Below are positions 9,231 through 51,050 of a stretch of 64,000 bases of DNA, in pieces. The translations under genes and the position numbers were made by a program. A model generated the notes under the pieces. That model saw nothing but the letters and a program-made list of their open reading frames with translations, ran no database searches and had not been told where the DNA came from. Position 1 is the stretch's first letter; every line of letters begins with the position of its first letter. The stretch is from a virus. The stretch spans positions 11,120-75,119 of the IMG/VR virus record IMGVR_UViG_3300045970_000046. The stretch is one strand, 5' to 3'.

Positions 9231-9243
9231 CGAGGTTAGATTA

Positions 9244-25202: not shown

Positions 25203-28124
25203 TTAGACAAGCTCACCATATTCGTCTACGACGTTATTTAGATGATCGCTGTCGTTCCGGTAGTAACGATCATCATAGTTTACAGCACGTAAGGTCGTCG
25301 TGTAATTATCTTTTGGATCCTTTTCCGAAACCAAGAAGGCTTTTTCACGTGAACTAATATTGTCTACGATATGATAGACAGCCCTAGCATATAGGTCTTG
25401 ATTTAAAGCTAGCGGTAACCGAGGAGCATGGTCTAGAAATACACTGCTTTCGGTCGAACCGTTACTAGCAACGAAACTCTCAATAGAACCATCGATATGT
25501 TGGATAAAGATTGTATACGTATGACCCGCAAGTAGCGTTACGGTCTGGGATAATTCTACTTCTAGTACGTTCTGGCCGATAACCTCACCGTCCTGTGTTC
25601 CAGTACGAGTATTATCGGCTACGAGGATTCTATCTTGTACAACAAGGATCTCGGCTTCTTGTGTAGCTTCAAATTCAACGGAAACGTTTTGGTATTGGAT
25701 CCTATTCCAGGCCCTTCTAGCAAGAAGATAAGCATGTAATTTACTGCGGATACCAAGACCTTCGATCTTACGTGGATTTATAGAGCCGTATTGTGGAATA
25801 CGGTATGTTAGAGGGGCCTCATCCTCAGGATCAACATAAGTTAGTTCAACACCGTCATAATTCTCGAGTGTACCGAAAGATATAGTCCGTGTTTCTGAAC
25901 CAGGAAGCTTATTACGGTGGTTGAATAGTAGGATACTATCGTTTGTCTGTTTTTCAAACGATAGCATTATTAAGCTACCTCTCCGGTAAGCCATACAGAA
26001 TACTGCCGTGGCTATAACCGTTATCATCTCTTCAAAAGACTCATTATCCTGATCGAACGCATGACCGAATTCAGATGCGTGGTATGTACCGAAATAAGGC
26101 TCAATTAGAGCTATAGTCTCGTATATATTCGATACATCTAGTTCACTTATAGCCCTACGACCAATATGCAGATCTAAACAGGCAGCACAGATCATATCTG
26201 CTACATTCTGTGTAGGAGATAGGGTAGTTGTGAAAGTATTCGTTGATCCTATACGAGTAGGTAGCTTCCTCGTAGTTAACATATTGATCTTACGCTCTTT
26301 AACACTCGTTGCCGAAAGAGTCGCGTATGTTGACACATAGGCTGTAGTCACATCCCCAAAATCTACCGTAGCTGGAACTTCAACCAACGAATAAAGATCA
26401 CGCCATTTAACCGTATCTACGACAGAAGTAGATCCCGTCGTTATCCGTTCATGGGCCGTATCGTTAACTGTAGTACGCCTAACACGAATTTGAACCCTAT
26501 GTCCAAAGAGCGAAGTTCCTACAATAGGGATATACATCGAAATAGCACATTGGGATCTTGTAGAGGCCGAACCAATTAATGTTGAAGTACGGAGAATAGT
26601 ATCCGTAAGGATTGGTTCGTCGGCGTTATCTAAAGGTGTAAGCTCTACTTCGACATCTACCGCTAAACGTCGTTGATGATTCTCTCTATTCGTATAATAT
26701 ATACCGGATGGAGCAATAAAGTTTAACTGATAGGCTGTGGCTGTTTTATCATCGATAGTCACCGCCTTTATCCAGTTTGGTCCTACAGAACTGATAACTG
26801 GACTAAGGTAACCAGTCTTACCGGGAATACTAGCCCAACCTGGATTAATTGAATTAGGTGAATCTAGAACTATAGAGTCATAACTAACGGCTAGAATCGT
26901 ATAGGTACCGTTTAGATTTATACCTCCTGATCCAATAGTCGTGTTAAAGCATTCAAGTACACCGTTAGATCCTATGGTCGTCTGTAAACTAACTTCATCG
27001 TATTCGTAATAGTTAGTCTGGAGTAGAGTTTCAAAAGCTCCACTAATTACCGGATAATCTTGAGTATTATAGGGGTAGCTACAGATAATAGCGTTAGGCG
27101 TACGGGCTAGTACCGTATATCCATAATCGAAGCACACGAAGCTCCGAACGTTACTAAACGCCGCACTAATCTGTAGTATGTCGCCCCCGTTAAGTGGAGG
27201 AGCGTCGTTATTTGGGAAGTGGACTGTAATAGGCCAATCCATAAAATCCGCCGTAAAATAGATATACGTGCCGGCTGTCGGTGGATTGATAATCACGTTT
27301 GATATATAAACCGACTGGCCAGCTACAAAGAGAGCGGCGAAATCTTCTTCCGGAGCCCCTATTAAATCTAGTTGTCCGGCTGCAGAAAATTGGACGTTAG
27401 CTATACCTCTAAAGACATTCGAGTTCTCAACTACTAGTTCCTGACCGTTAACAGACGAGTAGCGTTGTGTTGTATAGAGTGGTTCACCGATTAAGGACCC
27501 GGTTAATTGGTCTGGTTCAGAGCTATTAGGCTGCTTACCCGGACCGTAGATTTCAGCGGACAGACCTGTTATATCCGTGATTAATGTACTACCGTCTTTA
27601 ATATCACCAATCTCGTAAGAACCACGACCGATACATAGGTACGAAAATTCTACTTCCTGGTTATTAATAAATCTAGAACGCGGTACAGATATTAAATCTG
27701 GAGTACACCGTACAGTACCTAAGATATCCGGTATACGACCGTAAAGGCGCTCTCTATTCTGTCTACCCGATAGATCGTTTGTTGAAGAACGAGGGATCCT
27801 TTCCTTGTCCGGTTTAAATAGAATAGCCATCGTAATAACGGCTGCGATAGCTATGATAGATATGACAAGGGCGGTCACACCCATGTCGGCCGGATAGATA
27901 ACAACGATAAACGAACCTTCTAGTGTCTTCAGGTGCTCTGTAGAGGCTTCGTCCTTGGGAGTAACATCATGGGTATTGGCCACATGGTTATGGTAGATCC
28001 GGCCACCCTTTGGAAAAGACTCGTAATGCTCTTGTAAAAAATCTACAAGACTTTCATGTTCGTATGCAATCCACGAACTAGGTTCAAACGGATTCTCCGC
28101 TAATAGGATAGTTTTTAAGGACAT
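25203..28124 (-). CDS. central tail tip / lambda gpJ-like protein
   Basis: RIPDI.G.V...PDL, YDGVEL.Y.DP, AVNYD.RYY; follows NlpC/P60. Confidence 0.85.
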   Translation of the reverse strand: MSLKTILLAENPFEPSSWIAYEHESLVDFLQEHYESFPKGGRIYHNHVANTHDVTPKDEASTEHLKTLEGSFIVVIYPADMGVTALVISIIAIAAVITMAILFKPDKERIPRSSTNDLSGRQNRERLYGRIPDILGTVRCTPDLISVPRSRFINNQEVEFSYLCIGRGSYEIGDIKDGSTLITDITGLSAEIYGPGKQPNSSEPDQLTGSLIGEPLYTTQRYSSVNGQELVVENSNVFRGIANVQFSAAGQLDLIGAPEEDFAALFVAGQSVYISNVIINPPTAGTYIYFTADFMDWPITVHFPNNDAPPLNGGDILQISAAFSNVRSFVCFDYGYTVLARTPNAIICSYPYNTQDYPVISGAFETLLQTNYYEYDEVSLQTTIGSNGVLECFNTTIGSGGINLNGTYTILAVSYDSIVLDSPNSINPGWASIPGKTGYLSPVISSVGPNWIKAVTIDDKTATAYQLNFIAPSGIYYTNRENHQRRLAVDVEVELTPLDNADEPILTDTILRTSTLIGSASTRSQCAISMYIPIVGTSLFGHRVQIRVRRTTVNDTAHERITTGSTSVVDTVKWRDLYSLVEVPATVDFGDVTTAYVSTYATLSATSVKERKINMLTTRKLPTRIGSTNTFTTTLSPTQNVADMICAACLDLHIGRRAISELDVSNIYETIALIEPYFGTYHASEFGHAFDQDNESFEEMITVIATAVFCMAYRRGSLIMLSFEKQTNDSILLFNHRNKLPGSETRTISFGTLENYDGVELTYVDPEDEAPLTYRIPQYGSINPRKIEGLGIRSKLHAYLLARRAWNRIQYQNVSVEFEATQEAEILVVQDRILVADNTRTGTQDGEVIGQNVLEVELSQTVTLLAGHTYTIFIQHIDGSIESFVASNGSTESSVFLDHAPRLPLALNQDLYARAVYHIVDNISSREKAFLVSEKDPKDNYTTTLRAVNYDDRYYRNDSDHLNNVVDEYGELV

Positions 28125-28471
28125 ATGTAGAACCTAATGTCGGGATAAATTCCGCGAAGTGTATCTAAGGACTCGTACTTAGCACCTGTTCCGGTAAGAT
28201 GCAAGACGCGCCTACGGAGATAGACGCCCATATGTGGAGTGTCGCTCTTATTTCGCATAAGTACAAAGCACGGATCCACAGGTTGGGGTACACGGCTAAA
28301 CTTTTTCACCGTATTTTTAGTAAGAAGTCCGTGTTTTGGGGGTAGGATCTCGGTAAACACGGGGGTCACGTTAGTCCCGGTAAGATCCTCCCAAACGTCA
28401 CAAGCGAAATGTAGGCAGGTATAGGAGTTAATTTCATAGATACGCGAAAGATAGGGATCTACAGAGGTCAT
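28115..28471 (-). CDS. NlpC/P60 tail assembly protein (gpK-like)
   Basis: Y.CLHF, HMGVY...VLHL. Confidence 0.85.
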   Translation of the reverse strand: MTSVDPYLSRIYEINSYTCLHFACDVWEDLTGTNVTPVFTEILPPKHGLLTKNTVKKFSRVPQPVDPCFVLMRNKSDTPHMGVYLRRRVLHLTGTGAKYESLDTLRGIYPDIRFYICP

Positions 28472-29004
28472 AAGAAACCCCTTAACATAGGGAATCTATC
28501 AACCGTATAGTATTCCCCGATACGATTAACGTTTAGTCTAGGTAGGCGGGCTTCGAAAGAAGAGCCTTCCCTTTTAAAGTTGAAACTATCTACCTCTAGG
28601 TTAATAGGACCGAGAATACGTTCTAGAGTATCCGAACGATATATCCTATAAACTACGCGGGGCTTTTCAGCGTATCCACTACCAGGAGTCTGAGTTTCTG
28701 AGTCACGCGGAACCTGAGGAGAAGAAGCTATAGCGTCTAGTTCCTTCGGAAGAACCTCGCCAAGATCCCCTAGATCGATCTGGAAACCACCATCCAGATC
28801 GGCCTTAGATTTAATAGGCGTAATCCTAAGTGGATAGTAGTCAAAATGAAAGGTAGTAGCATCCTCTAGGACGACGGTTATACCTTCTATAGCGTTACGA
28901 ACTATACGATAGGTACGAGTAAAGTTCGGATGACTAATCTCTAGTAGCTCTAGGGCTACTACATCTGATTGTGAATTTAAGAAAAATTCAGTATATAGAC
29001 TCAT
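28468..29004 (-). CDS. tail tip protein (DUF1833 / gpL-like)
   Basis: LEISHP.F...YR.VRN, C-terminal RFP.LRGF. Confidence 0.8.
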   Translation of the reverse strand: MSLYTEFFLNSQSDVVALELLEISHPNFTRTYRIVRNAIEGITVVLEDATTFHFDYYPLRITPIKSKADLDGGFQIDLGDLGEVLPKELDAIASSPQVPRDSETQTPGSGYAEKPRVVYRIYRSDTLERILGPINLEVDSFNFKREGSSFEARLPRLNVNRIGEYYTVDRFPMLRGFL

Positions 29005-29005
29005 A

Positions 29006-30322
29006 TTAACCCGGGAGTAAACCAGGAAGCTGATTATTAATCAGGAAGTTCAAGGCGTCAATAGTAGCTTGGTCTGTAGTACCATTCAGGACTATAGCAG
29101 CGTATTCGCTAATAGCCTTACGTGTCTGGAAAACTTCCATTGTTGCCTGAATCGTAATATACTGCCCTATCTTACTTGCAACCTGAACACTCCCTGGAAG
29201 GAAACGAGCCGTACATTCAGAAGGAGTGGAAGAATCTAGTATTAGATCAACCTGGAACGGTAGAGAACAATCTCGAAGTCTACCGTAGAGTAACCAGAAA
29301 ATTTTATAGTCTGTGGGATTTAGCTTCCATTTAGCCGTTACAATAGACGAGGAATTTTGGATACCGGGACTATACCGACTTAGACCAATTCCATATTCGA
29401 TACTGATAACTTCGTCGTCTTTATCGGTAACGGTATATCCGTCCTGCAGTGGAACAAGGTATAGCTTCCGTGCCGGAGAATCCGTAGCTACTGAAGCATG
29501 ACCCGAAGCTGAACCACCTAGACCAACAGGCCCGTAGGTTCGAATATCGTCTTTAGTGGAAGCATGACCCGCGGCTGTACCTGTAAGGTCTACGGTACGA
29601 GATGTATGAGGTAAGGCCGTAGCTCCGGCATGACCTCCGGCGGTACCTCCCAAAGGAACAGGACCGGTAGTCTCTCCGGTTACATCCGCATGTCCGCCAG
29701 ACGTACCCCCTAGTAGAACGTCGGTCTGTAGCCCTGTGGCCACAGCACCCGCGTGACCAGAAGCTACCCCTGAAAGTGGAATACTGCTTGGGTTCGTCCC
29801 GAAATAACCGGTAGGTACAATTTGAATGGCAGCTGTACCTCCGTCTGTACCTACGAAGTGGATAGGTGCTAGTTTAAGTGAAACCGTTGAATTATCAGTG
29901 CTAGTAAACGAGAGTAATGTACCAGAGGTATCTAGTACATCGGCCGTAGCCGTTATATCTACTACTGTACTATGACCGGAGGCTGTACCGGATAGCCGTG
30001 TAGGTACAGTATACGAGAGTACGGACGTTAAAGCACCGCGACCACCAGCGGTACCGGCTAGTGAAGTAGGCCCTGTACTCGTCACACCGGCTGTTCCGGA
30101 ACCATGACCGGCAGACACACCACCTAATGACGTCGCTGTTGGAAGTTGAGTTGTTACCGTAGGACTAGATACAGTCGCCTGTCCGGAAGCGGTCCCGGAA
30201 AGCGGTATACGTATAGATTCTACCGTCACGTCATTAACAGTAATGGCTCCAGATCCGGGTACTACCCGTAAGGATAGAGTTGCATTACCTAGCGGTAACG
30301 TGAGGGTAGTTATAACCTTCAT
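29006..30322 (-). CDS. repeat stalk protein fused to a C-terminal Dit/gpM-like domain
   Basis: about nine xxL(S/G)G(T/V/S)(A/S)xGH repeats; C-terminal domain resembles ORF 37800-38162. Confidence 0.75.
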   Translation of the reverse strand: MKVITTLTLPLGNATLSLRVVPGSGAITVNDVTVESIRIPLSGTASGQATVSSPTVTTQLPTATSLGGVSAGHGSGTAGVTSTGPTSLAGTAGGRGALTSVLSYTVPTRLSGTASGHSTVVDITATADVLDTSGTLLSFTSTDNSTVSLKLAPIHFVGTDGGTAAIQIVPTGYFGTNPSSIPLSGVASGHAGAVATGLQTDVLLGGTSGGHADVTGETTGPVPLGGTAGGHAGATALPHTSRTVDLTGTAAGHASTKDDIRTYGPVGLGGSASGHASVATDSPARKLYLVPLQDGYTVTDKDDEVISIEYGIGLSRYSPGIQNSSSIVTAKWKLNPTDYKIFWLLYGRLRDCSLPFQVDLILDSSTPSECTARFLPGSVQVASKIGQYITIQATMEVFQTRKAISEYAAIVLNGTTDQATIDALNFLINNQLPGLLPG

Positions 30323-31941
30323 GGAGTAGCCGGAAGTGTAAGTGTATCTACTACAACACCGTTAACTAGAACTTCCACCTGACCACCTGTCGGAGAAGTG
30401 GCGTCAAGCTGCAACTGTAGGGGACGAGTCAGAGAATTCACAGTTTGAATATCCAGACCGGTGTCAGGGTTTAACGGTGCATTCAATGATATGGTACCAC
30501 CGTCTACCACAATACAATGCTGATTTGAAACCACCCCTACCTGAGAATCAACATCGGCCAGGTAGTCTCTAGTTCCAACCAGACCACCTACAGTTCTGGC
30601 TACTACGCGTACCTGCCAGTAATCGTCACCCCATGAGGTTAATTGATAGGCGTTATCGGTCCATCTGGAAACAGGTGGACCCTGATATACGCGTGTACCG
30701 TTAAGCCATAGCTCCACTTGGTTTACTGTATCGGAAGAACAGAAAGCTCCGAGGTCAACACTTACAGTACCACGAACTTTTATATGAAGCAACCCTTCGG
30801 AATGCGTATCTTCGATCCCAATATCGTTATGAGCAACATTGTACCAGTCATCTGTATGCGTCTCCCCACGCCCCTTGAGGCGTAGATACGGAAAGACTTT
30901 ATTGCTATTTCCTGGGAGCGTTGATTCAGCCTTCAGTACGGCGAGTTCTGCGTCAACTACACCGACCCCTGCGGCAGTATTGTAAAACATATCTACTTTC
31001 CATCCCTTTTTAGGTCTGGTAGCTGTCGAGATTAGTATATTTCTAACCTGTTCATTTGTTAGTGAGGGATTTTTCGCCCACACAAGTTGAGCAACACCAC
31101 CAACCACAGAGGCGATATTAATCAGATTTGGGTTCCAAAAACCTACTGTTCCAGGAAAGGGAAACTTACCGTTTTCGTGAATAGCCGAAATTCCCATATG
31201 GATCTGAGAGGCCAGTATGTCTACACGAGGTCCGTACTGGCCTCGGTAGGTGGATCCGGGATGCAGCATACTAAAGACACACCGGGCCTCATCGTCAATC
31301 CTAACTCCTCCAACACATAGAACGTGCGGGGCATCACTAGGGCTGTAGGCGGTAGCTGTTGGATTAGCTATAAATGTTTCATCGTCTCCAATATAAGAAA
31401 CGACTAGGCATCCAGCCGACCACGCATTGGCAACGGCAAGGGCTACAGCCGAGCCGGTAACGGTAGGACCAGCCGGGGCTGTTGGATGGACGGTGACGAT
31501 TACACGAGCGCCTGATGCAACGAGAAAATCTATCCCAGCTGCCATCGCCGAGGCACTTACACCCATGGCGAGCTGAATCCCATCTACTGCCGTCGCTAGA
31601 GTAGCTTCCGGGGCAACACCGTATAACCGTCCGGTTCCACCCTTACCTACAAGAGTAACAGCCGGATTGATAGAGTAGCTACCTCCACCACGGCCACTAT
31701 TGATATTAGTCCCGCCGGTGGAGATATTCCGAGCAGCTATAACCTTACCTGTTAGTTCAGGGGTGTTGGGAAAGAAGTTAGGGTAGGATCCAGCCTCGCC
31801 AGGATATTCAGCACATATAAGTCCAATAGGAAAGGTTGCCGCTCCCGTACCTATTGTCCACGCCTCGTATACATGGGACCGCTGGAACGTATGCTGCCTA
31901 CCAAACAAGGTGCTCTGATATGGGAGCTTATACCGGATCAT
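30319..31941 (-). CDS. catalytically degenerate S8 subtilase
   Basis: YGVAPEA, GPRVDILA, GVAQLVW.KNP.LT.EQVR.IL..TA kept; D, H and S motifs lost; start MIRYK at 31941 after GAAGGAGGAG. Confidence 0.8.
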   Translation of the reverse strand: MIRYKLPYQSTLFGRQHTFQRSHVYEAWTIGTGAATFPIGLICAEYPGEAGSYPNFFPNTPELTGKVIAARNISTGGTNINSGRGGGSYSINPAVTLVGKGGTGRLYGVAPEATLATAVDGIQLAMGVSASAMAAGIDFLVASGARVIVTVHPTAPAGPTVTGSAVALAVANAWSAGCLVVSYIGDDETFIANPTATAYSPSDAPHVLCVGGVRIDDEARCVFSMLHPGSTYRGQYGPRVDILASQIHMGISAIHENGKFPFPGTVGFWNPNLINIASVVGGVAQLVWAKNPSLTNEQVRNILISTATRPKKGWKVDMFYNTAAGVGVVDAELAVLKAESTLPGNSNKVFPYLRLKGRGETHTDDWYNVAHNDIGIEDTHSEGLLHIKVRGTVSVDLGAFCSSDTVNQVELWLNGTRVYQGPPVSRWTDNAYQLTSWGDDYWQVRVVARTVGGLVGTRDYLADVDSQVGVVSNQHCIVVDGGTISLNAPLNPDTGLDIQTVNSLTRPLQLQLDATSPTGGQVEVLVNGVVVDTLTLPATP

Positions 31942-34354
31942 AAACTCCTCCTTCAATGTTACCGGAGATATCAATCCCGTAGAATTGTAGCTTTCCCGAC
32001 TGGGGCGTAAGCGGAGCAAGATACGTGCTCCACGCTCCAGAACCCCACCGGTACCTAATTGTTACAGGAGCATTCTCACTAACAGACGACAGTATGATAG
32101 TACCACGGGTGGCGGTAGGCCACGAAACCGTGGTAAGTGGAGCAGCAGCTGCAGAGGTGTGACCAATAACGTCGACATACTCCTGCTCGACGGTAAGCGT
32201 AGAGGTTCTAGCAACTAATTTTAGAAGATTCCCAGCTAGAAGTCCGGAGTTCAAAGGGATTAGCGAGTCCCATGTAGTTCTAGCCCCTCCTTGGTAAACC
32301 ATTGTAGATCCGGCCCATAATTCCAAGGAGGTAATAGGATCCGAAGAATAGGCTATGAGCTCTACATATATAGTTCCATGGAGATGAACGGTAGGAACCC
32401 CCGAGCTCCAAACTACAGCATCACTGATAAGAATGGGAATATACCGCCCCATGATATCTCTTTTAAAGAAATTGCAGTAAGGAAAGATATGTCCTGCAAA
32501 CTCCGGGACTAATGACAGCGCCTTGCTAACGGCCTTTCCTGCATTCCAAATACCCGGTAACTCAGGAAATAATGTTGTAAAATCTGGATTCTGAGGCTTA
32601 TCCCAAGTATCTTTAGCTATCTGACAGATCTGAAGCCCCGTTAAATCCATGTTAGCTGAACCGATTAGGGCACAAATTCCCACTGAAAAGGGGGTAGCAG
32701 AAGACGTACCGTTAAAATAGGTGTAGTCCACTAGAGCGTTGTTTGGATTAGAAGGAGTGAACCACTCGAAATCGCTATCTATAGCTCCGGACGTTGCGAT
32801 CCCAGTTCCAGCCTGGTGGTAGACAGAGGCTAGAATCTGATGTCCATGAGCCACCGCATTAACCTTAGGACCGTAATTTGAATAGCAAGCACGCTCGTCA
32901 AGCCGGGTGGTCTCTAGACATCCAACAGACAAAAATCCATATTCCTTACAAAGATTTCCGGGACTTCCCGACATGCCCGTAGAGTAATTACACGCGGCAA
33001 ATAGGGCTGCGTCGCCGCGATCTCGGAGCAGGTCGAATGTTGTCCTATACTCCGCCAATAATCCACCGGTAGAAGTGTACGCAGAGCCCCAGGAATTATT
33101 CGAAATTTTAGCCCCCAACAGGGAACCCATTATCAGGCCCTCTGTTAGAGCCACAATGGTGACATAAGTTTCTCCCGGGGCTAGTTCCGTCCGCCAAGAG
33201 AAACCATTACAGCTAAACAAGGAGCATTCAGGAGCGACGCCAACAGGCCCGGCCTTTAGAGGTGAGGATCCTACGTAGTCCGGTTTGTTAGCGTTAGCCA
33301 AAATGACACCGGAGCAGCAGGTCCCGTGAGTTGCGGATCCAGCCGAATTATCCGTGCTGGGCCCGAATACCCCCTTACCGGGATTAAAACGGATTACTTT
33401 CTTTCCGGCAAACGCAGGCCACTGCTCTGCCGCAGTTGGGTAAAGGGGGCCTCCAGGGACTCCTAGGGTCGGATCACTAGCGGGACCCGTAAATGTAGAG
33501 TTAATTATTAATCCAGAATCATTTACCGTGACTAAGAAATCCGGGTGCCCCATCGTATACTTCCACGCCGAAAAGACATCCGACCGTAAGTGAGAATACT
33601 GTCTGGGAAGAGCCGCATCGCTGGCCCCATGGTATTTGCGTTTGGAAGTTTGATAGTTAGGGAGCCTAACATTAGTCGTAGTAGCCGAAGCGTGGGCTGT
33701 ATCTACAGATGTTCTTGGCCCAGAGGAGGAAGCCCGCAGCGAAATATAACGGCCTTGTTTGGTACCTTCTACAGAAATTGTAGATGAGGGAACAGGCCCT
33801 GCACTCGGTTGCACCATACTCCATATACCTAACCCGTGGTTGAGTGCGTCAGGTCCTAACAAAATATCTGTAGATAGCGGAGGACCTACAGGCGTAGTCC
33901 ACCACGTACTCAGAGTATCATAGTCATAACTAAACTCGTAATTATGGGCTAATAACAGAACAAGGCTGTTCTGCCCTAAAGTCGTAATTGAAGGAACAAC
34001 TAGATCCGTGTATACAGTGATGTCGGGACTTGTGGCCGTAGCGAGCGAACCCACAACCTCTATCGGGGCTGTGGGATCACAATCTCTATAGGCCGCCATA
34101 ATAATATAGCCTGTACTATGGGCTATGTCGACGTTTTCATCAGTTAATACTTTGTAGCAAATAGCGAAGAAAGTTGAAGTTCCTCCCGCAGAATTTGAAG
34201 CTCCTGGGACTAGGGTCCAACCTGTAGGAGCCGAGCTAGTTCCGGTGATGAAGGCTATAACTACATCACCAGCTTCGAGACCCGAGGGTACACCTTCCTT
34301 AGTGGGATCATCCCCACGGTACTTCCCTGTACTTACAAGATATGGGATTCTCAT
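31928..34354 (-). CDS. S8 subtilisin-like serine protease with tail-protein N-domain
   Basis: VNDSG, HGTCCSG, GVAPE, NNSWG, AACN, GTSSATP. Confidence 0.9.
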   Translation of the reverse strand: MRIPYLVSTGKYRGDDPTKEGVPSGLEAGDVVIAFITGTSSAPTGWTLVPGASNSAGGTSTFFAICYKVLTDENVDIAHSTGYIIMAAYRDCDPTAPIEVVGSLATATSPDITVYTDLVVPSITTLGQNSLVLLLAHNYEFSYDYDTLSTWWTTPVGPPLSTDILLGPDALNHGLGIWSMVQPSAGPVPSSTISVEGTKQGRYISLRASSSGPRTSVDTAHASATTTNVRLPNYQTSKRKYHGASDAALPRQYSHLRSDVFSAWKYTMGHPDFLVTVNDSGLIINSTFTGPASDPTLGVPGGPLYPTAAEQWPAFAGKKVIRFNPGKGVFGPSTDNSAGSATHGTCCSGVILANANKPDYVGSSPLKAGPVGVAPECSLFSCNGFSWRTELAPGETYVTIVALTEGLIMGSLLGAKISNNSWGSAYTSTGGLLAEYRTTFDLLRDRGDAALFAACNYSTGMSGSPGNLCKEYGFLSVGCLETTRLDERACYSNYGPKVNAVAHGHQILASVYHQAGTGIATSGAIDSDFEWFTPSNPNNALVDYTYFNGTSSATPFSVGICALIGSANMDLTGLQICQIAKDTWDKPQNPDFTTLFPELPGIWNAGKAVSKALSLVPEFAGHIFPYCNFFKRDIMGRYIPILISDAVVWSSGVPTVHLHGTIYVELIAYSSDPITSLELWAGSTMVYQGGARTTWDSLIPLNSGLLAGNLLKLVARTSTLTVEQEYVDVIGHTSAAAAPLTTVSWPTATRGTIILSSVSENAPVTIRYRWGSGAWSTYLAPLTPQSGKLQFYGIDISGNIEGGVYDPV

Positions 34355-34752
34355 TAGGTGAACCGAAAAGACGGATTAGATACTCGTAAGATATCTCCAG
34401 TATCACTCATCAGCCTTGTCTTATGGCCTAGTTCTAAAATGGCGATTAAGGCTCCGGAGGTTCCGGAGGCAACCGTGACAAGTCCGATATACCGGATAGG
34501 TACGGCGGCTGTAAATCCAGTAAATTCAAAGTTCCCCGAGCACGTAAACTGGCCTGCAACAACAGTCATATTCAACTGTGGACAATTAATTCGAGAGTAT
34601 GTCCCAGTTACGGCAGTAACTTCCGCCATATTCGCCAACGTGGTAGTATCGGATCTATCCGTTAGAGCCGCTAAATAAATACCGCCCGGCAAGGACGCGA
34701 TAAGTGCAAGACTTAGGGCCTGAGAACCCTCGATAGGAATTACAACGGCCAT
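34354..34752 (-). CDS. fibre/appendage subunit, paralogue of 37200-37772 and 51051-51434
   Basis: YL.....AEVT..GTYSR...F......IGL....SG.LIA. Confidence 0.65.
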   Translation of the reverse strand: MAVVIPIEGSQALSLALIASLPGGIYLAALTDRSDTTTLANMAEVTAVTGTYSRINCPQLNMTVVAGQFTCSGNFEFTGFTAAVPIRYIGLVTVASGTSGALIAILELGHKTRLMSDTGDILRVSNPSFRFT

Positions 34753-34991
34753 TATTGTGTCTCCACTAATGACTCGAACCAGACATTGGCCACAGCAGGG
34801 TGGGCTTCATAACGAAGGATTGCCGTGGATACGTTTGCGGTACCGACAAAAACCTCTAACACCATCGCGTTCGGATACATATTTAGCGTACGTCCCCCAC
34901 ACTCCTGAACTACACATAGACCTAGATCCTGGTCCCAATACTTCAGTCGTACCATCAATCTATCTAGTAGTATAGGGAGGGCCATATCCAT
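34752..34991 (-). CDS. hypothetical protein
   Basis: 79 aa, tightly packed in the operon. Confidence 0.55.
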   Translation of the reverse strand: MDMALPILLDRLMVRLKYWDQDLGLCVVQECGGRTLNMYPNAMVLEVFVGTANVSTAILRYEAHPAVANVWFESLVETQ

Positions 34992-34993
34992 AC

Positions 34994-35989
34994 CTAGTAT
35001 GATAAGCCACCTAGTTTAATGTCGTAAATTAGTCCGGATCCGAAGAGGTATAAGAACGTGCTCGCCGGAGTAGGCCAAGCACCAGCCGTATTTAAGGTTA
35101 CGTTTTGAATCCCATCTATGAAAGATAAAGTAGCACTCGTTCCCAGTCGGAATTCTATCCTGTATAGTTTATTTACCAACGGAGTTGGAACTAGATTAAT
35201 TTGTTCTAAACCACCAGCTACACTAATACCAGACCAAGTCCCTAGCTCAGAGTCGTACCCAGCAGAGAATCCGTTTGTATTGGATAATAGAGTCTGCAAG
35301 CTTGCGGCGGTAGTATAAGTGCTTCCAGACAGCAAGGAAAATAGTCCGGAGCCATTGATACTATTCGTGGTCCTAGCGGCGCACCTAAATTCGAGATACC
35401 AAGGAGCGTCCTGCATTCCGGTAATACTAGCCTTAATAACGTCCGCGCCAGCCATGGTGACTATACCAGCCGAAACCGTAGGGGCACCTGCTACAATAGA
35501 GAACTGACCTAGAGTATTGGATGCAAAATCTTCATAGAGGACAACGCTGGGAGTGGTTTGAATAGTTAGAGTACGAGGACTCGCGAATAAGGCCGAAATA
35601 TTACCAGCCGCGTCTTTGGCCCATGGGTAGAACGTTACGGATCCACGACCCTCCGCAATCCAGGAAGTTGGCACAGTAGCTACCCACTTAGGATCTGCGG
35701 GGGACGGTTTAGTAGCGGATTCTGTAATTAAGTATCCTGCTATACCGCCAGCATGCGTTGCGTTAAGATTGTTAATCAGAATACGAGCCCCGAGATGGGC
35801 TGTGTCATTGGCGTAGAGATTAAACGCATTCATTGAGGGAAGAGTATCTTCCACCGTAAAGGACCTACCGGAGACTACCACCGTACCGTTTACTTTCATA
35901 TCAACAGACTGAGCACCCCCGGCCATAGCTACATCCGGAATGGACCAATTTCCTGCCCCGTCAGCCGTAGTGGACCCAAGTAAAGCCAT
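34994..35989 (-). CDS. Ig-like / lectin-like appendage protein
   Basis: LLGSTTADGAGNWS half-Ig; GYLITESATKP...WAKDAAGN Ig module; C-terminal beta-sandwich. Confidence 0.7.
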   Translation of the reverse strand: MALLGSTTADGAGNWSIPDVAMAGGAQSVDMKVNGTVVVSGRSFTVEDTLPSMNAFNLYANDTAHLGARILINNLNATHAGGIAGYLITESATKPSPADPKWVATVPTSWIAEGRGSVTFYPWAKDAAGNISALFASPRTLTIQTTPSVVLYEDFASNTLGQFSIVAGAPTVSAGIVTMAGADVIKASITGMQDAPWYLEFRCAARTTNSINGSGLFSLLSGSTYTTAASLQTLLSNTNGFSAGYDSELGTWSGISVAGGLEQINLVPTPLVNKLYRIEFRLGTSATLSFIDGIQNVTLNTAGAWPTPASTFLYLFGSGLIYDIKLGGLSY

Positions 35990-35991
35990 AG

Positions 35992-36993
35992 CTATGTCCC
36001 CGTATCGTAAATAGTAACAGTTGATCCGGCCGCCGCGGTACCCGAGAACGTAACGGAGGCCGATGTAGTCTGACCAGCGGTCGGTGTTGCAAGTGTGTTC
36101 GAAACCGAACCACCTGAAATACTGACGGTTGAGGTTGCCCCCGCAATCCCAGCTCCGCTTCCCGCGATAGGCGCCGGAGCCCCCGTCTGGGTTCCGCTGC
36201 CACCAGAGCCAAGGCCTCCAGCCGAACCACCAAGAGATACTGTAGTAGCTGGTGCACTGGTAGTATCGGCCTGACCACCGGCAGCCCCGGAGAGGGCCGA
36301 GTCTACGATAACCGCACCGGCCGAATGTATCTCAATCGTCGCGTTAGGAACGACGACGCCGCTGAATGTAACCAAGGCCCCAACAGTAGACCCTTCAACC
36401 GGGAATTCCATAGACGCATCGGAGCCCGTCGATAGAGTCCCAAAAGATCCAGCCTGACCAGCGGCGGTACCACCCTGTGGACCAGAAGTTGCCGCGGTTC
36501 CCTGTCCACCGGCGTGCCCCACGGAGGTCCCAGAGAGAGGAACAACCTGAGACAACGGGGCCGTAGCACCGGCCCGACCACCAGCCGTAGCTTGTAACGG
36601 AGTTTGACCCGGTGTTGTTGTAGATATCGGACCTAGTTCGTTACCGTGGCCACCCGCTGTACCACCTAGGCCAGTAGAAACACCAAGAGCGGCGGTGGTT
36701 CCCCCTAAACCACCTGCCGCGCCTGTTGTTTTCCGTTCAGTGGATAGAATCCCACTTACATCTGCGTGACCCGACGTTGTTCCACCAGCTCCACCAGTGT
36801 CTAGTTGAGCACTAACGGTGGCCCTACCCGCAGCCGTTGCTTCTAGTATAAGTCCGAAGGGTAAAGGTGATTCCCAATAACCTGAACTGTTGGCCTGAAC
36901 AGGAGTAAGAGCCTGGCCGGCGACGGTAGGCGTCACAAAAGCGTTTGGAGTGGTTGAACCCCAAACCTTTACTCCACCAATCTGAACAGGCAC
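35992..36993 (-). CDS. Gly/Thr/Ala repeat protein with partial Ig domains
   Basis: about ten LxGT(A/S)xG(H/Q/R)A repeats; ends SGTAAAGSTVTIYD; GGAGG RBS with GTG start. Confidence 0.75.
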   Translation of the reverse strand: MPVQIGGVKVWGSTTPNAFVTPTVAGQALTPVQANSSGYWESPLPFGLILEATAAGRATVSAQLDTGGAGGTTSGHADVSGILSTERKTTGAAGGLGGTTAALGVSTGLGGTAGGHGNELGPISTTTPGQTPLQATAGGRAGATAPLSQVVPLSGTSVGHAGGQGTAATSGPQGGTAAGQAGSFGTLSTGSDASMEFPVEGSTVGALVTFSGVVVPNATIEIHSAGAVIVDSALSGAAGGQADTTSAPATTVSLGGSAGGLGSGGSGTQTGAPAPIAGSGAGIAGATSTVSISGGSVSNTLATPTAGQTTSASVTFSGTAAAGSTVTIYDTGT

Positions 36994-37008
36994 GAAAACC
37001 TCCGGAAA

Positions 37009-37188
37009 CTACTTCGTACCGGTAGAACTAGCCGCGCGGGCCGTACCAGATAACGGAGTAACTTTTCCGGTAGTCTTCTCCTTCTGACCTGCGTTACTGG
37101 CCCCCTTAGCATCACCGCTTAACTTAGTGGGAGGAGTTTGAACACATGAACAAAGGACGACTACTAGAGCCACTAGAAGGATCTTCAT
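37009..37188 (-). CDS. 59-aa lipoprotein carrying two stalk repeats (not in ORF track)
   Basis: MKILLVALVVVLCSC lipobox, then TKLSGDAKGAS and TPLSGTARAAS. Confidence 0.65.
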   Translation of the reverse strand: MKILLVALVVVLCSCVQTPPTKLSGDAKGASNAGQKEKTTGKVTPLSGTARAASSTGTK

Positions 37189-37199
37189 AGTGGCACCGA

Positions 37200-37772
37200 T
37201 TACTGCTCTGTAACGTGAAGCGCCCCTGCCGTAAACGACGCCGTCGAGTTCTGCGTAACGGCTACAGGGGCGTTATTCACAGCACCCCAGTAGAGTAGGT
37301 TACCGGCGGTAGCTGCATCGTAAATCCCAAAGCACTGAACGGACCACGAAGTACCGCTGCTGTTAGTCCAGGCGGCGCTACCGGAAATGGAACCGGCATT
37401 AACGTACTCGTCGGTATTCGTGTAGGTATTGCAGTTACCGGTACCGGAACCAGTGCAGCAGGTAAACGGCGCCTGGCTAGTGGTGCACGCACCGTTGGTC
37501 GCGTGTGTCCAACCGGTACCATTAGCGATAGCCGCCGAACGAGTAGTATATCCGGGTTGCGAACCGCTATTAAATTCAACTCCGGCGGTACCAGCCGCAG
37601 GGCACGTCGAGAATAACCCGACATAGGTATTGACCGGAGCCGAGAACGCCGTATTACCGAAAATCTCACCAAGCACCTTAGCCGAAAGATACGAATACTT
37701 CCCACCGGCCACGGCTAACAGCGGAAGAACTAGGGCGAGGGCAACAACTGCGAACTTCTTATTAAACTTCAT
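37200..37772 (-). CDS. fibre/appendage subunit with signal peptide and Cys-rich insert
   Basis: GAAGGAG RBS; MKFNKKFAVVALALVLPLLAVA; YVGLF...FGIYDAATAGNLLYWG..F.AGAL.V. Confidence 0.75.
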   Translation of the reverse strand: MKFNKKFAVVALALVLPLLAVAGGKYSYLSAKVLGEIFGNTAFSAPVNTYVGLFSTCPAAGTAGVEFNSGSQPGYTTRSAAIANGTGWTHATNGACTTSQAPFTCCTGSGTGNCNTYTNTDEYVNAGSISGSAAWTNSSGTSWSVQCFGIYDAATAGNLLYWGAVNNAPVAVTQNSTASFTAGALHVTEQ

Positions 37773-37799: not shown

Positions 37800-38162
37800 T
37801 TAGGAAACGATAGCTAAAGTAGCCTTAACAAGATACTGATCTCCGTGAATCTCCGCCAACTTCATCGTACCTTTTACGAATTGTACAGTATGCTCAGATA
37901 TTGTAGGATCGTCTACCAATAAATTGATCCGAAAAGCTGATGCCGTAAACTGGACTAACCTATAAAACGCACGAATATAATCGTATTCTTGAGCATTACA
38001 ATACCATGTAACGTCAATATGAGGCAATGTTTTATTTATAGGCTTAATTGAAGCCCTCCGGAATTTAGAGAAGCCTCCTTCAACAGCGAACTTTATTACA
38101 TCAGCCTCAAATGTAATCCTATAACCTGATTCTTCCGGTGTAAGGTCTAGGGCTATAGACAT
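37800..38162 (-). CDS. distal tail (Dit / gpM-like) protein
   Basis: directly after the tape measure; GY...GG.S.FRR...V.W...F.I.L. Confidence 0.7.
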   Translation of the reverse strand: MSIALDLTPEESGYRITFEADVIKFAVEGGFSKFRRASIKPINKTLPHIDVTWYCNAQEYDYIRAFYRLVQFTASAFRINLLVDDPTISEHTVQFVKGTMKLAEIHGDQYLVKATLAIVS

Positions 38163-41100
38163 TAGCGCTTCCGTCCAGTCGTAGTATGCGACGAGAGGGC
38201 CTTACTGACTCGACTATTAGCGTTTATAATATCTCTGGCCACAATGCTAGGTGTATGCGTCTGGACGGCGGCCAGGGCCTCTTCGCGGGCGATAATCCGA
38301 ATATCGTTCCCATTACGTTCAACACTGATATTGGAAGGTGTGTAATTCTCAATTTTCACGTTAACTTGGGTTCCGCTGGCGCCCGCCTTACCGGGGGATC
38401 CCCCACCACCCGCACCAGAGGACCCCCTATTTAGAGCCTCTAGCATTGGACGGTAGCGCCGGGTAGCCTCGGCATTAACAACATACTCCTGCCCATGGAC
38501 TAGTCCAGCTACTTCACCTGTAGGACCATCACCGGTGTAGCCACCGACCATATAACCGGTAGAGATAAGATCACGCTTTACCGTAGAAGTTGTATCTAGA
38601 GCTTGGTAAGTAGACTTATTCTGGAATGTCGAATTAGTAGACGAGCTATACGACCTGAACATCTCGGGTGTAATGGTCTTGCCCTTGTTTAGATCTTCTA
38701 AGAGAGGGCGGTTCTTTTTAGTAGCGGTGGCGTTAAGTACATACTCCTGACCGTGATAGAAGCCCGCTACACTATTAACGGGACTATCACCGGTGTAACC
38801 GCCAGACTTCATTCCAGCCCCACCGATAGCTGCTGCGATAGCCGCGGTAGAGAGCATCGATGCGTCAGCCGCTAGACCAGCCGCGCCGAAGGTCGCGATA
38901 CTCACAAGAGCTGCCGGTCCTGCCCACATGGCCCCCGTTTCGGCGGCCATGGTAGCTCCGGCTGCCGTTGCGGTCGCCATACCCATAGTGGCTATAGCCC
39001 TGTTAACGAGGAATTGTAGGCCAATCTTAATTAAGGAGCTAAGTAATTCGGCTAGGATATTACGAGATATATCACCTAACGTCTTTTCTAGGTTTTCACC
39101 GAATACAATAGCTCTTGCGAACGCCGTACCAATACCATCTATTAACTGTGTGACGGGTTTCGCAAAGGTGGAGCCTAACTGACGGGCGAAGTCAGTGGTA
39201 CGTCGGCTAAGTAGGTCGATCTGTTTAAGCATACCGTCGAAGAAGGTACCTTCTCCGGACTGTATATTAGCTTCCGCTTGTAAATCGCGGAGGTCCATCT
39301 TAACACTCTGTATCCCAGATTCCACCGCTCCCCAATCCGTTTGACCAAAGATTGGAGTAGCATACGTATTTCCGGTTTCCCAGTCGCTAACCGGATTCAC
39401 GTGACCAATTACAGGGGTGTTATCTTTAATCAACTGAGCTGTAGACTTCTCTAACACTTCTTTGTTAACCTGTTCTTGGACCTTAGGCTTTTCGGCACGA
39501 CGATTAATCGTACTATAGAGACGGTCTACTTCCTGTGCTATACGCTTATACTCGGCCCTCTCTTCCTGTAGTTTATTAATACGAGACTGGGCTGCAAGCT
39601 CATTAGTTGTAGGTACGTGGCCAAGCTCCCGTTTAAGTTTAAGCTCATCCTCCATAGCTTGAAGTAAGCCCTTACGGGCTGCGGAGGACCCCTTGTAAAT
39701 ACTAATCTCGCGTTCAAGAGCGGCTTCTAATGTCTCAAGTGGGAATAGGGCTTCCTTAGAATGTTCCACATAAGCGGCGAGTAACCTGTTACGCTCTGCC
39801 ATCGTAATAAGCGTCTCTTGTGTAACAGTACCGTCAGGTTGCACAACAGGGGCGGCGACCGGCAGGGCTGCAGAGGCGTCTAATAATCCCTTAGCTTGGT
39901 CTAGGCGGATCTGAGCTGCAAAGACAGGACTCATCTGTTTCTGAATCTCTTCTAGGCCGCGCTTGTATTCTTCAATCTTGCCTTTGTCTAAAGCAAAGAT
40001 GGGTTTCTTGGCATCTTTACTGATATCGTCCTTAGTCCCCTTATTAGCGGCGTCTGTACGGGCTTTAGCCGTCTCCCGGAACTTAGAAATAAGCCCATCT
40101 AACTGGGACATTACGCCATCGGTCCAATCCCCAATACGATCACCACTGAAGGACCAAGTCTTTAACTTCTCCATATCAGCTAAGAGTTTATCGAACGAAC
40201 CCTTAGCATTATTTTCTACTTCAAACTTAACTGGAGTAATGGTTGCCGTAGTGCCAAAGAGTTTCTTAAAGATAGCACTTTGGGCTACAGAGTTTAGCCC
40301 ATCTATAAGTGTATTTATGATAGGAGCGGCTAACTGGGCTAGGCCGCTAAGAGCTTGTGAGAAGATATCCGTGAGTACACTAGGTATGCTACGGAGTAGT
40401 AGAGGAATAAGATTAGCTACATAGTCTACACTACCCAGAATACCATTCAGGATCCCCTTAAAGATTGTTATCGTCGCCTTTGTAATCCATTCAAAGAGGC
40501 TATAAATCTTACGTTCAATAAAGACGAGTAGTTTATCCCAACCGCTCAAGGCCTCTATAGGATCGATACCCTGAGGCTTATGCGACGACATACTAGATGT
40601 TACAGAAGAGGCCTGAGGAGAAGAGGCTAGTGAAGCTCCGCTGCCCGGGGCCTGTCCTTGGACTAGAGTAGATTGTACCGTCTTAGCTATTGTATTCTGA
40701 AGAGTAGAACCGCTCGTAGGACTAGTATTATCCTTGAAAACGTCAGTCTTATAACCGGCCCTCTTATTTAGATCGCGTGTAATTAAGGCGATATAAAGCT
40801 TAGTTTCATCGGCTAATTGATCGAAGACGGTAGTTAGATCCTTAGTCTTATCTAAGAGTTTTCCACCGTTAACTTTATCGGCCCGGTTAGGTCCGCCGTT
40901 ATAACCAGCTAGGGCTTTCTCTACACTACCATCGAATTTATTTAATAGCTCACGGAGGTAAGACGTACCTCCTTCGATATTATTCTTTGGAACATTTGGG
41001 TTAACACCCAAATCCGCAGCAGTCTTTGGCATCAGCTGCATTAAGCCAATCGCTCCAACAGGTGAAAGAGCGTTTGGATTATTATTAGACTCCTGCTTCA

Positions 41101-44100: not shown

Positions 44101-44542
44101 GCGGTGGTACAATGACCGGGGCAGGCGCCATCTTAGCACCGAACATCTCACCCTGTTCACCCACAGCCCCCTTAAGAGTAGGGGCGGCCATCGAAGCCAG
44201 CACAGATTTAAACTGTGTGGCTAACCCCATCACACTTTCAAATTCTTTCGCCAGGCCTTCCAGGTCCTTAGTGATCTCTCCGGGGGCCTTACCCCGTAGG
44301 GAATTTAATTGATCCCGTAGTTTTCCAACCGCCGTCGAACTGGTACCTACTTGACTTGTAAGGTCGGTAAACTGTTTTCCCAGTTCCGAACCGGGCTTAA
44401 ACGAAAGGTTTTTTAGATCTCCCTGCAACTCCGATATAACCGACTGGGCCTTTTCGGCAGACTTAGCCACATCCTCGAAACTCCGCGCAACTACACGCGA
44501 ACCAGTTTCGGATATGGATATAAGAATTGTTTCGTCGGCCAT
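38162..44542 (-). CDS. tape measure protein with SLT lytic transglycosylase domain
   Basis: LLQLGQ...EFNSI.EN.P tape-measure motif; QES...SPVGAIGLMQLMP..A, YNGGP; duplicated GGYTGD...HGQEYV. Confidence 0.95.
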   Translation of the reverse strand: MADETILISISETGSRVVARSFEDVAKSAEKAQSVISELQGDLKNLSFKPGSELGKQFTDLTSQVGTSSTAVGKLRDQLNSLRGKAPGEITKDLEGLAKEFESVMGLATQFKSVLASMAAPTLKGAVGEQGEMFGAKMAPAPVIVPPPVQLPLPNVPRPKLPDPWDEPPPIPKDKGMAEYEAKINQIRAELLKVEPRTLITECSNQLVQLGDKTKKQLDLLAQLKVANKDLGTTGQMDMFARPEVVHPPDTKAHYQDVVRQREVELATTNAMRPPQREFATGGVPWNEEVDRNSRGFAIKRMTDEAEILSVKLRQLGTVGQQSLGFMPLMEAQLGGTALKAKEAAENIQQLTLNLQGGRLAPTTPTIPGTKPKDVNQEIKDELASRDVGRRAFAGSPIEEQRILAEARALREKTKATEELAAAQTKAQMSLNLTAPGADKQALKGQTKEELTTRQLDFTDKSTGVTWLEDSARQERFLQEAASRAGTVATEVKTISTAAKLASAGVGQLTLDFDRAGTAAGKLGQATMSGTGKLSNEIQATTTSIDAYIAQLDREVAALNKEGDALAKGVASHKEYQRSVQMEGAYTRVAEATTAPGQAVQPLNNTNRELVRSRVEERQAVVALNAEMAKLNSLYNSPAPGVSTARQEAANRLYREGTITAQQYNNAIYGTGRALASTTAGYNSHARAAQQATSSAAHFVRQLWYIRMAAEMFAGFLMIRELKQSADGWINASNSVRLSTSSVKEATAVQEELVQVALRTRQPFDDVVTLYRRISMASLTVGASQATAIQFVENVGKALLIQGTSADAARGSLLQLGQMLGMGKIRMQEFNSISENTPRILKGIADHLQGGSKSIVMFRKAVEEQNRRGGGLNWKQLIKGKEEETIDSSVVFKAFLADTSQLDKEVDTVQRSFAQGFNNLSTNVTKFVGEINEAYKISDKFNTMIDWLGGNLDKLAASLGTVAAALAALAIPAALSGISKLIGQTAQGAAVSALPAWGVTPLTAAGGVATRGAVGAAAGGAVGSGMLGFMSANPLGVSVAALAALTAGLYLFRDNIEVAGITLGDVFRTLGKIVSDTFPFLQKLGFGAPEPVATALQVPSVVPRSEEGVAWGYNPKDDASMTSHPYGKDIIDAAKQFDVSVHLIAAVMKQESNNNPNALSPVGAIGLMQLMPKTAADLGVNPNVPKNNIEGGTSYLRELLNKFDGSVEKALAGYNGGPNRADKVNGGKLLDKTKDLTTVFDQLADETKLYIALITRDLNKRAGYKTDVFKDNTSPTSGSTLQNTIAKTVQSTLVQGQAPGSGASLASSPQASSVTSSMSSHKPQGIDPIEALSGWDKLLVFIERKIYSLFEWITKATITIFKGILNGILGSVDYVANLIPLLLRSIPSVLTDIFSQALSGLAQLAAPIINTLIDGLNSVAQSAIFKKLFGTTATITPVKFEVENNAKGSFDKLLADMEKLKTWSFSGDRIGDWTDGVMSQLDGLISKFRETAKARTDAANKGTKDDISKDAKKPIFALDKGKIEEYKRGLEEIQKQMSPVFAAQIRLDQAKGLLDASAALPVAAPVVQPDGTVTQETLITMAERNRLLAAYVEHSKEALFPLETLEAALEREISIYKGSSAARKGLLQAMEDELKLKRELGHVPTTNELAAQSRINKLQEERAEYKRIAQEVDRLYSTINRRAEKPKVQEQVNKEVLEKSTAQLIKDNTPVIGHVNPVSDWETGNTYATPIFGQTDWGAVESGIQSVKMDLRDLQAEANIQSGEGTFFDGMLKQIDLLSRRTTDFARQLGSTFAKPVTQLIDGIGTAFARAIVFGENLEKTLGDISRNILAELLSSLIKIGLQFLVNRAIATMGMATATAAGATMAAETGAMWAGPAALVSIATFGAAGLAADASMLSTAAIAAAIGGAGMKSGGYTGDSPVNSVAGFYHGQEYVLNATATKKNRPLLEDLNKGKTITPEMFRSYSSSTNSTFQNKSTYQALDTTSTVKRDLISTGYMVGGYTGDGPTGEVAGLVHGQEYVVNAEATRRYRPMLEALNRGSSGAGGGGSPGKAGASGTQVNVKIENYTPSNISVERNGNDIRIIAREEALAAVQTHTPSIVARDIINANSRVSKALSSHTTTGRKR

Positions 44543-50081: not shown

Positions 50082-50101
50082 GGGCTAACCCCCTAGAACG
50101 G

Positions 50102-51037: not shown

Positions 51038-51050
51038 GTTTAAGCCGGAC

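Follow-up and report, generated by a model that had tools for sequence, protein, structure and literature searches.

A gene cassette between two distal tail protein domains of a pond siphovirus: a candidate tail-tip version of the chain-like phage fibre

Introduction

Why should the compact tail module of a siphovirus be interrupted, between its tape measure gene and the minor tail protein genes that follow, by a block of repeat proteins, small fibre-like subunits and subtilase-like proteins? The question is raised by positions 29,006 to 37,772 of a 64,000-nt stretch (hereafter the window, its phage being the window phage) of the viral record IMGVR_UViG_3300045970_000046, a genome of 75,119 bp that is rated 100% complete by CheckV and of which the window covers most. 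The reading defended here, to which we assign a probability of about 0.6, is that this block encodes a tail-tip version of the chain-like (beads-on-a-rope) fibre, its rope being fused in frame to a distal tail protein (DTP, or Dit) domain.

Several chain-like fibres have been solved. Fiber I of the Ralstonia podophage GP4, as described in papers that cite it, carries five gp80 dimers on a separately encoded rope protein (PMC13730344). The Pseudomonas podophage A1002 has a nozzle-rope protein whose fibre-dock repeats form augmented beta sheets with eleven dimers, drawn from two kinds of bead; the C-terminal domains of this protein are part of the nozzle, with a truncated partner next to them (PMC13730344). 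Whisker dimers of the myophages Bas63 and Sf14 are held by a rope that extends the collar protein at its N-terminus (PMC12609058). The DTP ring of long-tailed phages is itself the usual docking site of side fibres and spikes (PMC12724387).

A repeat rope in frame with a distal tail protein domain

The central evidence lies in the last gene of the block, which encodes a 438-aa protein made of a small N-terminal beta domain, four repeats, a 50-aa beta mid-domain, five further repeats, and a DTP domain with C-terminal helices. The nine repeats have a period of 22 (spacing 20-25 residues) and share the core hydrophobic-x-L-(S/G)-G-x-(A/S)-x-G-(H/Q/R). Residues 287-397 are matched by the 120-aa protein encoded next to the tape measure gene (BLASTP E 3e-10), and both proteins match phrog_384 at the same profile positions. 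In the AlphaFold2 (AF2) model, residues 280-438 mostly have a pLDDT (the per-residue model confidence) of 86-98, and Foldseek with this C-terminal part returns solved DTPs, namely that of Sf11 (9occ_D, E 1.2e-5), lambda gpM (8iyk_E, TM score 0.70 over the target) and the T1 tail tip (9l9p_H). A first-pass annotation, made from the sequence alone, had claimed that the last gene ends in a second Dit-like domain and had named this structural search as the way to check it; sequence and predicted fold now agree on the claim.

The position of both genes is also typical of a DTP, the 120-aa gene lying next to the tape measure gene and the 438-aa gene next to a DUF1833 gene. A HMMER search of 1.84 billion representatives gave 361 relatives of the family, mostly single-domain proteins of 120-170 aa, while a word-based search found no longer proteins with a fused DTP domain, and neither a Pfam model nor a PDB sequence match exists for the DTP profile. 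The 120-aa protein groups with its equivalent in an uncultured contig, L088, in a clade of their own (support 100) on a long separate branch, and the two DTP paralogues are kept as distinct clades. Because of the domain matches, the fold and this clade placement, the canonical DTP domain is the one in the 438-aa protein. The 120-aa protein is an additional copy that has diverged and become shorter, and the gene was duplicated before the window phage and L088 split. In many phages, two gpM-like DTP domains occur in tandem, either as one protein of about 290 aa (P0016, P0024 and about 30 others) or as adjacent open reading frames (ORFs; L109, L122 and L124), an arrangement compatible with a trimer that mimics a hexameric ring.

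The rope part of the 438-aa protein is predicted to be disordered in the AF2 monomer, which would be compatible with a segment that folds on binding only. That a virion ring would hold this rope is supported, at the genetic level, by the in-frame fusion to the DTP domain, a fusion that is kept in L088 and agrees with the first-pass proposal of an arm anchored on the Dit ring.

Setting of the cassette and its recurrence in L088

The genes of the cassette and of its borders are listed below; every gene discussed lies on the minus strand.

38162-44542, minus: tape measure protein, 2126 aa.
37800-38162, minus: 120-aa DTP paralogue (gpM-like), shortened, without C-terminal helices (phrog_384; E 3e-10 to the C-terminus of the 438-aa protein).
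37200-37772, minus: 190-aa Gp80-family bead with a Sec-type signal and a Cys-rich insert (6 Cys) (PF23140; PDB 8jou_a).
37009-37188, minus: 59-aa lipoprotein-like ORF with two rope-like repeats (lipobox-like ...LCSC; two LSG-type units).
35992-36993, minus: 333-aa second rope, with a Big-like N-domain, about 8-10 Gly/Ala repeats and half an Ig-like domain (repeat hidden Markov model).
34994-35989, minus: 331-aa protein with the apparent rest of the Ig-like domain, another beta domain and a tentative ConA/LamG-like domain (reading of the junction; features in a protein atlas).
34752-34991, minus: 79-aa ORF without a family match.
34354-34752, minus: 132-aa probable divergent Gp80-like bead without signal peptide (atlas; broad hidden Markov model).
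31928-34354, minus: 808-aa protein with a 230-aa N-terminal beta domain, an S8 subtilase domain and C-terminal beta domains (PF00082).
30319-31941, minus: 540-aa S8-like paralogue without the Asp, His and Ser motifs (PF00082; paralogy).
29006-30322, minus: 438-aa rope-DTP fusion (BLASTP, repeats, AF2, Foldseek).
28468-29004, minus: gpL-like minor tail protein (DUF1833), bordering the cassette on its 3' side (PF08875; phrog_396).
28115-28471, minus: gpK-like protein.
25203-28124, minus: gpJ-like protein, 973 aa.

The tail module thus follows a lambda-like order, interrupted by nine ORFs between the 120-aa DTP and the gpL-like gene; the interruption had been noted in the first pass, with a count of eight genes that becomes nine once the 59-aa ORF is included. 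Neighbouring cassette genes touch or overlap, terminator-like sites are not in excess, and a 1760-aa fibre is encoded beyond the gpJ-like gene. The phage record is contained in two pond-metagenome runs, with no RNA data set listed for the region, and the cassette sequence is identical between two independent assemblies (depths 132x and 16x).

How unusual is such an interruption? Among annotated phages, the nearest are Acinetobacter HD01, Klebsiella Kmi2C and Erwinia AH03, and the annotated regions of HD01 and Kmi2C run from the tape measure through one protein of 162-167 aa to the gpL, gpK and gpJ homologues with no insertion. A host among the Gammaproteobacteria may be suspected from distant relatives of the tail genes. 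Among 61 uncultured contigs fetched by the presence of a gpL homologue, the gap between the tape measure and gpL genes measures 470-520 nt in 38, which leaves room for one DTP gene, and just one other contig, L088, has a large insertion there. No close relative of the cassette was found by megablast against 50,697 phage records, and IMG/VR scans with the single 438-aa, 190-aa and 808-aa proteins gave zero matches. The interruption of the tail order at this locus is therefore real and unusual.

L088 is a 26.8-kb IMG/VR contig that is 66% identical to the window phage in gpL, 50% in gpJ, 50% in the 120-aa DTP and 45% in the other DTP domain. Its genes run in the order tape measure, 120-aa DTP, cassette, rope-DTP fusion, gpL, gpK and gpJ, with the DTP gene and the cassette inside an interval of 6.5 kb between the tape measure and gpL genes. 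The fusion protein is longer (583 aa), with at least 18 highly regular repeats of 21-22 residues ahead of the DTP domain, and the cassette contains a Gp80 gene (PF23140 E 2.6e-26) and no subtilase. The synteny check proposed in the first pass thus finds the layout again, in one of the 61 contigs, and shows a conserved two-DTP frame with variable repeat number and cargo.

Ropes and beads

The repeats are not confined to the 438-aa protein. A hidden Markov model (HMM) built from its units recognizes about 8 units in the 333-aa protein, with a score of 13.5 bits where 50 shuffles of matched composition reach -7.6 at most, and gives the 59-aa ORF a score indistinguishable from those of its own shuffles. 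The earlier claim that three proteins share a repeat of about 22 aa therefore holds for the 438-aa and 333-aa proteins, the 59-aa ORF not being significant alone. Outside the window phage, repeats and the mid-domain motif are shared with the 438-aa protein by three metagenomic proteins (P0041, P0113 and P0151), of which P0113 and P0041 also resemble the 333-aa protein. A 654-aa protein of the related module L009 has both features as well, and its gene lies 2.4 kb from a Gp80-like gene that is 37% identical to its counterpart in the window phage. No Pfam family exists for these repeats. A proposed kinship between the N-terminal 230 aa of the 808-aa protein and the N-domain of the P0151 and L009 654-aa ropes was rejected, the HMM comparison being unsupportive. 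A joining of the 59-aa and 333-aa ORFs by TAG read-through is also unlikely, as 26 of the 106 ORFs have TAG as their stop codon and a suppressor tRNA was not found.

The 190-aa protein is, by sequence, a member of the Gp80 bead family (PF23140, 62.6 bits, E 6e-17, with a curated cutoff of 27 bits; GP4 gp80, PDB 8jou_a of entry 8JOU, E 6e-7). It thereby belongs to the family of the solved chain-like fibres of GP4, A1002, Bas63 and Sf14, and the first-pass proposal of a candidate undescribed system has to be given up.

The 132-aa protein is probably a divergent Gp80-like bead. A broader Gp80 HMM gives it the weak score of 6.7 bits, collinear over nearly the whole length, and hallmark positions of the family alignment are retained. 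PF23140 is carried by 27 of its 30 nearest clusters in an atlas of protein-language-model features, with a low recognition value from the tool itself. Its AF2 model (pTM, the overall model confidence, 0.63) aligns in VIA-align with 8jou_a (Z 9.8) and with the Sf14 neck chain 9c39_K (Z 8.7), a match that is circular rather than independent since the model was built on the Gp80 alignment. The Pfam scan gave no PF23140 match, BLASTP and hhalign against Gp80 were negative, a word-based search found no homologues, and Foldseek with the model gave zero matches. Of the two paralogous small fibre subunits claimed in the first pass, one is thus firmly placed and the other more loosely.

In VIA-align the same model also resembles two chains from other phages, one of 105 aa in the tail tip of mycobacteriophage Bxb1 (9d93_Ra, Z 6.8) and one of 139 aa in a tail fibre of Agrobacterium phage 7-7-1 (Z 5.5); solved siphophage tips may already contain Gp80-like folds. 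A Gp80-family gene (8986-9372, E 4e-51) was also noted in the Sporosarcina phage Lietuvens (L007), a contractile-tailed phage of a Gram-positive host, between the baseplate J-like and DUF2313 genes. The 79-aa ORF of the cassette has zero family matches in Pfam, PHROG and NCBIfam and no likeness to the Gp80 profile.

A further rope-and-bead set is encoded outside the cassette:

47928-51434, minus: neck set, with a 127-aa Gp80-like gene (51051-51434), a 311-aa ORF and a 717-aa repeat protein.

The 127-aa protein matches PF23140 with E 5.5e-5, just under the Pfam cutoff, and an in-house HMM with 17.5 bits, and the 717-aa protein has about 26 Ser/Thr-rich repeats of 22 aa (by count and autocorrelation) and a C-terminal domain of about 140 aa. 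The window phage thus seems also to build a GP4-style rope-and-bead fibre at the neck, which brings to three the Gp80-like genes, and to three or four the repeat proteins, of one genome.

The second rope and the enzyme-like cargo

The 333-aa ORF ends partway through an Ig-like domain that the 331-aa ORF resumes two bases on, and a -1 slip at a run of four G, within CGGGGAC, would join the two frames. Because the same layout is found within a single ORF of L009, which combines a Big domain, a rope and a ConA-like domain, this organization suggests that the two ORFs function as one unit; a sequencing or assembly error behind the split is unlikely, the assemblies at 132x and 16x being in agreement. 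The 331-aa protein would then probably be the head of the 333-aa rope. Its atlas features are like those of Big_7 proteins, and its ConA-like structure matches reach TM scores of 0.44-0.47, so that of the Ig- and carbohydrate-binding-like modules announced in the first pass only a weak assignment can be retained.

The 808-aa protein is an S8 subtilase (PF00082, 68.7 bits, E 7e-19) that, judged from its residues, is apparently active with a full D/H/N/S set: the HGT, NSWG and GTSxAxP motifs align with mirolase (8ehe), and the Asp motif NDSG is read from the sequence. The 540-aa protein is its paralogue (E 3e-11) and matches PF00082 with 32.4 bits (E 8e-8); the aligned Asp, His and Ser positions are substituted, and it is probably a member of the S8 fold and not an enzyme. 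The pairing of an active with an inactive subtilase described in the first pass is therefore borne out at the level of catalytic motifs. The S8 proteins have no relative in the 50,697 phage records or in IMG/VR, and NCBIfam adds only a mycosin similarity far under cutoff. Enzymes of other kinds stand in sister modules, a GH10 glycosidase in L009 and a large domain behind a chitobiase-type module in L008. Enzymes thus travel with rope-bead cassettes, and their attachment to the rope is a conjecture. The idea that the protease cuts a proteinaceous host layer was pure inference; the enzymes of the sister modules are glycosidases instead.

Signal-like N-termini, cysteines and a putative mini-rope

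Not all parts of the cassette look like cytoplasmically assembled virion proteins. With signal peptides and lipoboxes read by eye, the 190-aa bead starts with a Sec-type signal, a signal-like N-terminus being kept in P0002, L008, L047 and L088, and a lipobox-like signal opens the 59-aa ORF. A small two-unit lipoprotein adjoins the signal-peptide bead both in the window phage and in L088, where it is an 82-aa lipoprotein-like ORF (lipobox and two rope-like units) next to the Gp80 gene; three more of the L088 cassette proteins have signal-like N-termini. In L008, the gene after a signal-peptide bead encodes a lipoprotein with rope-like units. The export signals go together with cysteines: in the set of distinct Gp80-like proteins assembled here, all five that bear a signal, which are not all independent lineages, have two or six Cys in the mature part, and the 62 without signal have zero or one (Mann-Whitney p 2e-7). 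This correlation lends indirect support to the signals read by eye. Might A1002 offer a precedent, the first 30 residues of its gp41 being absent from the map? The homologue of gp41 in the congener KPP25 has no signal peptide, so the map gives no export precedent.

From these sequence features, the 190-aa bead and the 59-aa lipoprotein mini-rope probably form a parallel exported pair, and the cassette probably is not one single arm, the exported pair coexisting with a presumed virion part made of the rope-DTP fusion, the second rope with its head, and a cytoplasmic bead. The single modular arm of the first pass leaves the exported-looking bead and the 59-aa ORF unexplained.

Proposed assembly

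In the model that we favour, the 438-aa DTP, N-terminally extended by its nine-repeat rope, would form a ring under the tail tube with the 120-aa paralogue. Because the tip is threefold and tandem double-DTP proteins occur elsewhere, we infer that this ring is a 3+3 hetero-hexamer, which would place three ropes on each virion. On the model of the solved fibres, each repeat would bind one Gp80-fold bead dimer by beta-sheet augmentation, the likeliest cytoplasmic bead being the 132-aa protein, and repeat number would set arm length (nine here, at least 18 in L088). That repeat strands template the assembly and set its length had already been proposed in the first pass; this is the architecture of the solved chain-like fibres, carried over here by analogy. 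The 333-aa rope, continued by the 331-aa Ig- and ConA-like protein, would make a lectin-headed arm, the two S8 proteins would be cargo, as a protease counterpart of the sister-module glycosidases, and the signal-peptide bead with its lipoprotein mini-rope would remain a parallel exported pair.

Comparison with known chain-like fibres

GP4 Fiber I (8JOU) shares its bead family with the window phage, presumably with one dimer per short repeat in both. It differs in that its rope is separate, is held by an Ig-like neck collar and carries five dimers, whereas the rope of the window phage is fused to a tail-tip DTP and has nine repeats. The GP4 rope is not detectably similar in sequence, and the papers that cite this fibre describe no signal-peptide beads, lipoprotein or proteases with it.

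A1002 comes close in organization: its gp39, with gp40 and gp41, is likewise a ring-embedded rope beside a truncated partner, with two bead types, as the window phage probably has, and a small Ig-like domain at the distal end of the rope is a further likeness. Its anchor is a podophage nozzle with 11 docking sites, in contrast to the siphophage DTP of the window phage, and the beads and rope of the congener KPP25 (ORF005-007) show negligible similarity to the window proteins. Gp80-fold dimers are also bound by an N-terminal rope on a ring-forming protein in Bas63 and Sf14, as is proposed for the window phage; there, the complex sits at the neck of a contractile-tailed phage, with only two dimers per rope.

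As in Sf11 gp17, T5 pb9 and lambda gpM (PMC12724387), the DTP ring would serve in the window phage as the site of appendages. The additions known on these DTPs are C-terminal domains or adaptor helices, whereas the window phage has an N-terminal repeat rope, predicted to be disordered, and, in contrast to all three, two copies of the DTP gene that flank a cassette. What is new here is thus the rope-DTP fusion between duplicated DTP genes in a siphovirus, together with variable cargo in a fixed frame, Cys-paired, apparently exported beads with mini-rope lipoproteins, and the S8 pair.

Weighing the alternatives

Several observations weigh against a tail-tip chain-like fibre. The sole solid Gp80 member of the cassette has a Sec-type signal and six Cys, which fits export and not cytoplasmic assembly, and the bead assignment of the 132-aa protein is weak, given the negative BLASTP, hhalign and Foldseek searches. 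The ropes have no significant similarity to the Gp80-neighbour protein of the GP4-like phage JC1 or to the KPP25/A1002 rope, so that the link to the solved fibres rests on the bead family and the repeat architecture; the JC1 protein itself, a putative homologue of the GP4 rope, has no PDB, Pfam or repeat-HMM match. Docking is argued from analogy only, and nothing links the S8 proteins to the rope. Finally, the junction between tape measure, DTP and gpL genes is an insertion hotspot for unrelated genes in relatives, and some cassette genes may therefore be non-structural. The inserts seen there in L132, L107 and L136 are a 311-aa signal-peptide protein, a 199-aa signal-peptide protein together with a helix-turn-helix (HTH) protein, and a metallophosphoesterase.

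Could the cassette then be a mixed one, in which the two DTP paralogues and the fused rope are the only virion parts and the rest is accessory hotspot cargo? The bead and mini-rope would in that case reside in the envelope of the infected cell, for example masking or modifying the receptor (for superinfection exclusion or for the protection of progeny from debris), and the S8 proteins would be soluble and released at lysis. This possibility, which we regard as rather doubtful, draws on the Sec- or lipobox-type N-termini of the 190-aa and 59-aa proteins and of four or five L088 cassette proteins, on the cysteines (2 or 6) of all signal-peptide Gp80 homologues, set against 0 or 1 in the 62 others, on L008, where a signal-peptide Gp80 protein and a rope-repeat lipoprotein with a large enzyme-like domain lie at a different genome position, and on the unrelated signal-peptide genes or phosphoesterase held by the junction of relatives. 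It fits poorly with the tight embedding of the block in the tail operon, between two structural paralogues that are conserved, with the absence of a visible signal peptide on the 333-aa, 331-aa, 132-aa, 808-aa and 540-aa proteins, and with L088, where the sole bead that can be recognised for a virion rope of 18 repeats has a signal peptide. A further reading, in which the rope-bead principle works in two compartments, seems unlikely to us: the tip ropes would be loaded with beads in the cytoplasm, and a disulfide-bonded bead on a two-repeat lipoprotein would act in the envelope, either passing beads on at lysis or masking the receptor.

Decoration of the virion after lysis can also be imagined, with beads exported, oxidised in the periplasm, held there by the strand of the mini-rope and passed at lysis to the empty repeats of the virion. 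Such a scheme would accommodate both the correlation between signals and cysteines and the rope-DTP fusion, as well as the two-repeat lipoprotein adjoining the signal-peptide bead in both phages. It is entirely inferential, the KPP25 homologue of gp41 speaks against it by its lack of a signal peptide, and to our knowledge there is no precedent for tail appendages completed after lysis, all of which makes it quite improbable. The least credible explanation is that the Gly/Ala-rich repeats are flexible low-complexity linkers without any docking, their co-occurrence with Gp80 proteins being incidental. The repeats are indeed compositionally simple, predicted to be disordered and devoid of a Pfam family, but their period is strictly 21-22 residues, a hydrophobic-x-G-x-A-x-G-x-A core is kept in distant proteins, the L088 copies, at least 18 in number, are in phase, and scores lie far above those of composition-matched shuffles; moreover, three Gp80-like genes and three to four repeat proteins stand in one genome. 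The tail-tip chain-like fibre, accompanied by an exported pair, is the reading that we retain.

Other features of the genome

A lytic-transglycosylase-type motif (E-S ... GLMQ) was seen by eye in the middle part of the tape measure protein (38162-44542, minus). Outside the window, at C1:1607-7344 of the genome, ARAGORN predicts five tRNAs (Ile-tat, Glu, Leu-tag, Gln and Leu-taa) and one tmRNA-like element.

Implications

Chain-like fibres have been solved recently, in a few short-tailed and contractile-tailed phages. If the reading proposed here is true, the DTP-fused version puts them on a third tail type, at the end that contacts the host, and repeat number and cargo (proteases here, glycosidases or others elsewhere) are swapped within the two-DTP frame. 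That bead proteins with signal peptides also have paired cysteines is a new hint, open to test, that some of the fibre parts act outside the cytoplasm, and if the two-compartment reading were true, parts of chain-like fibres would be used outside the virion. If the tail-tip reading is true, the two-DTP frame would be a natural plug-in site for the engineering of host range.

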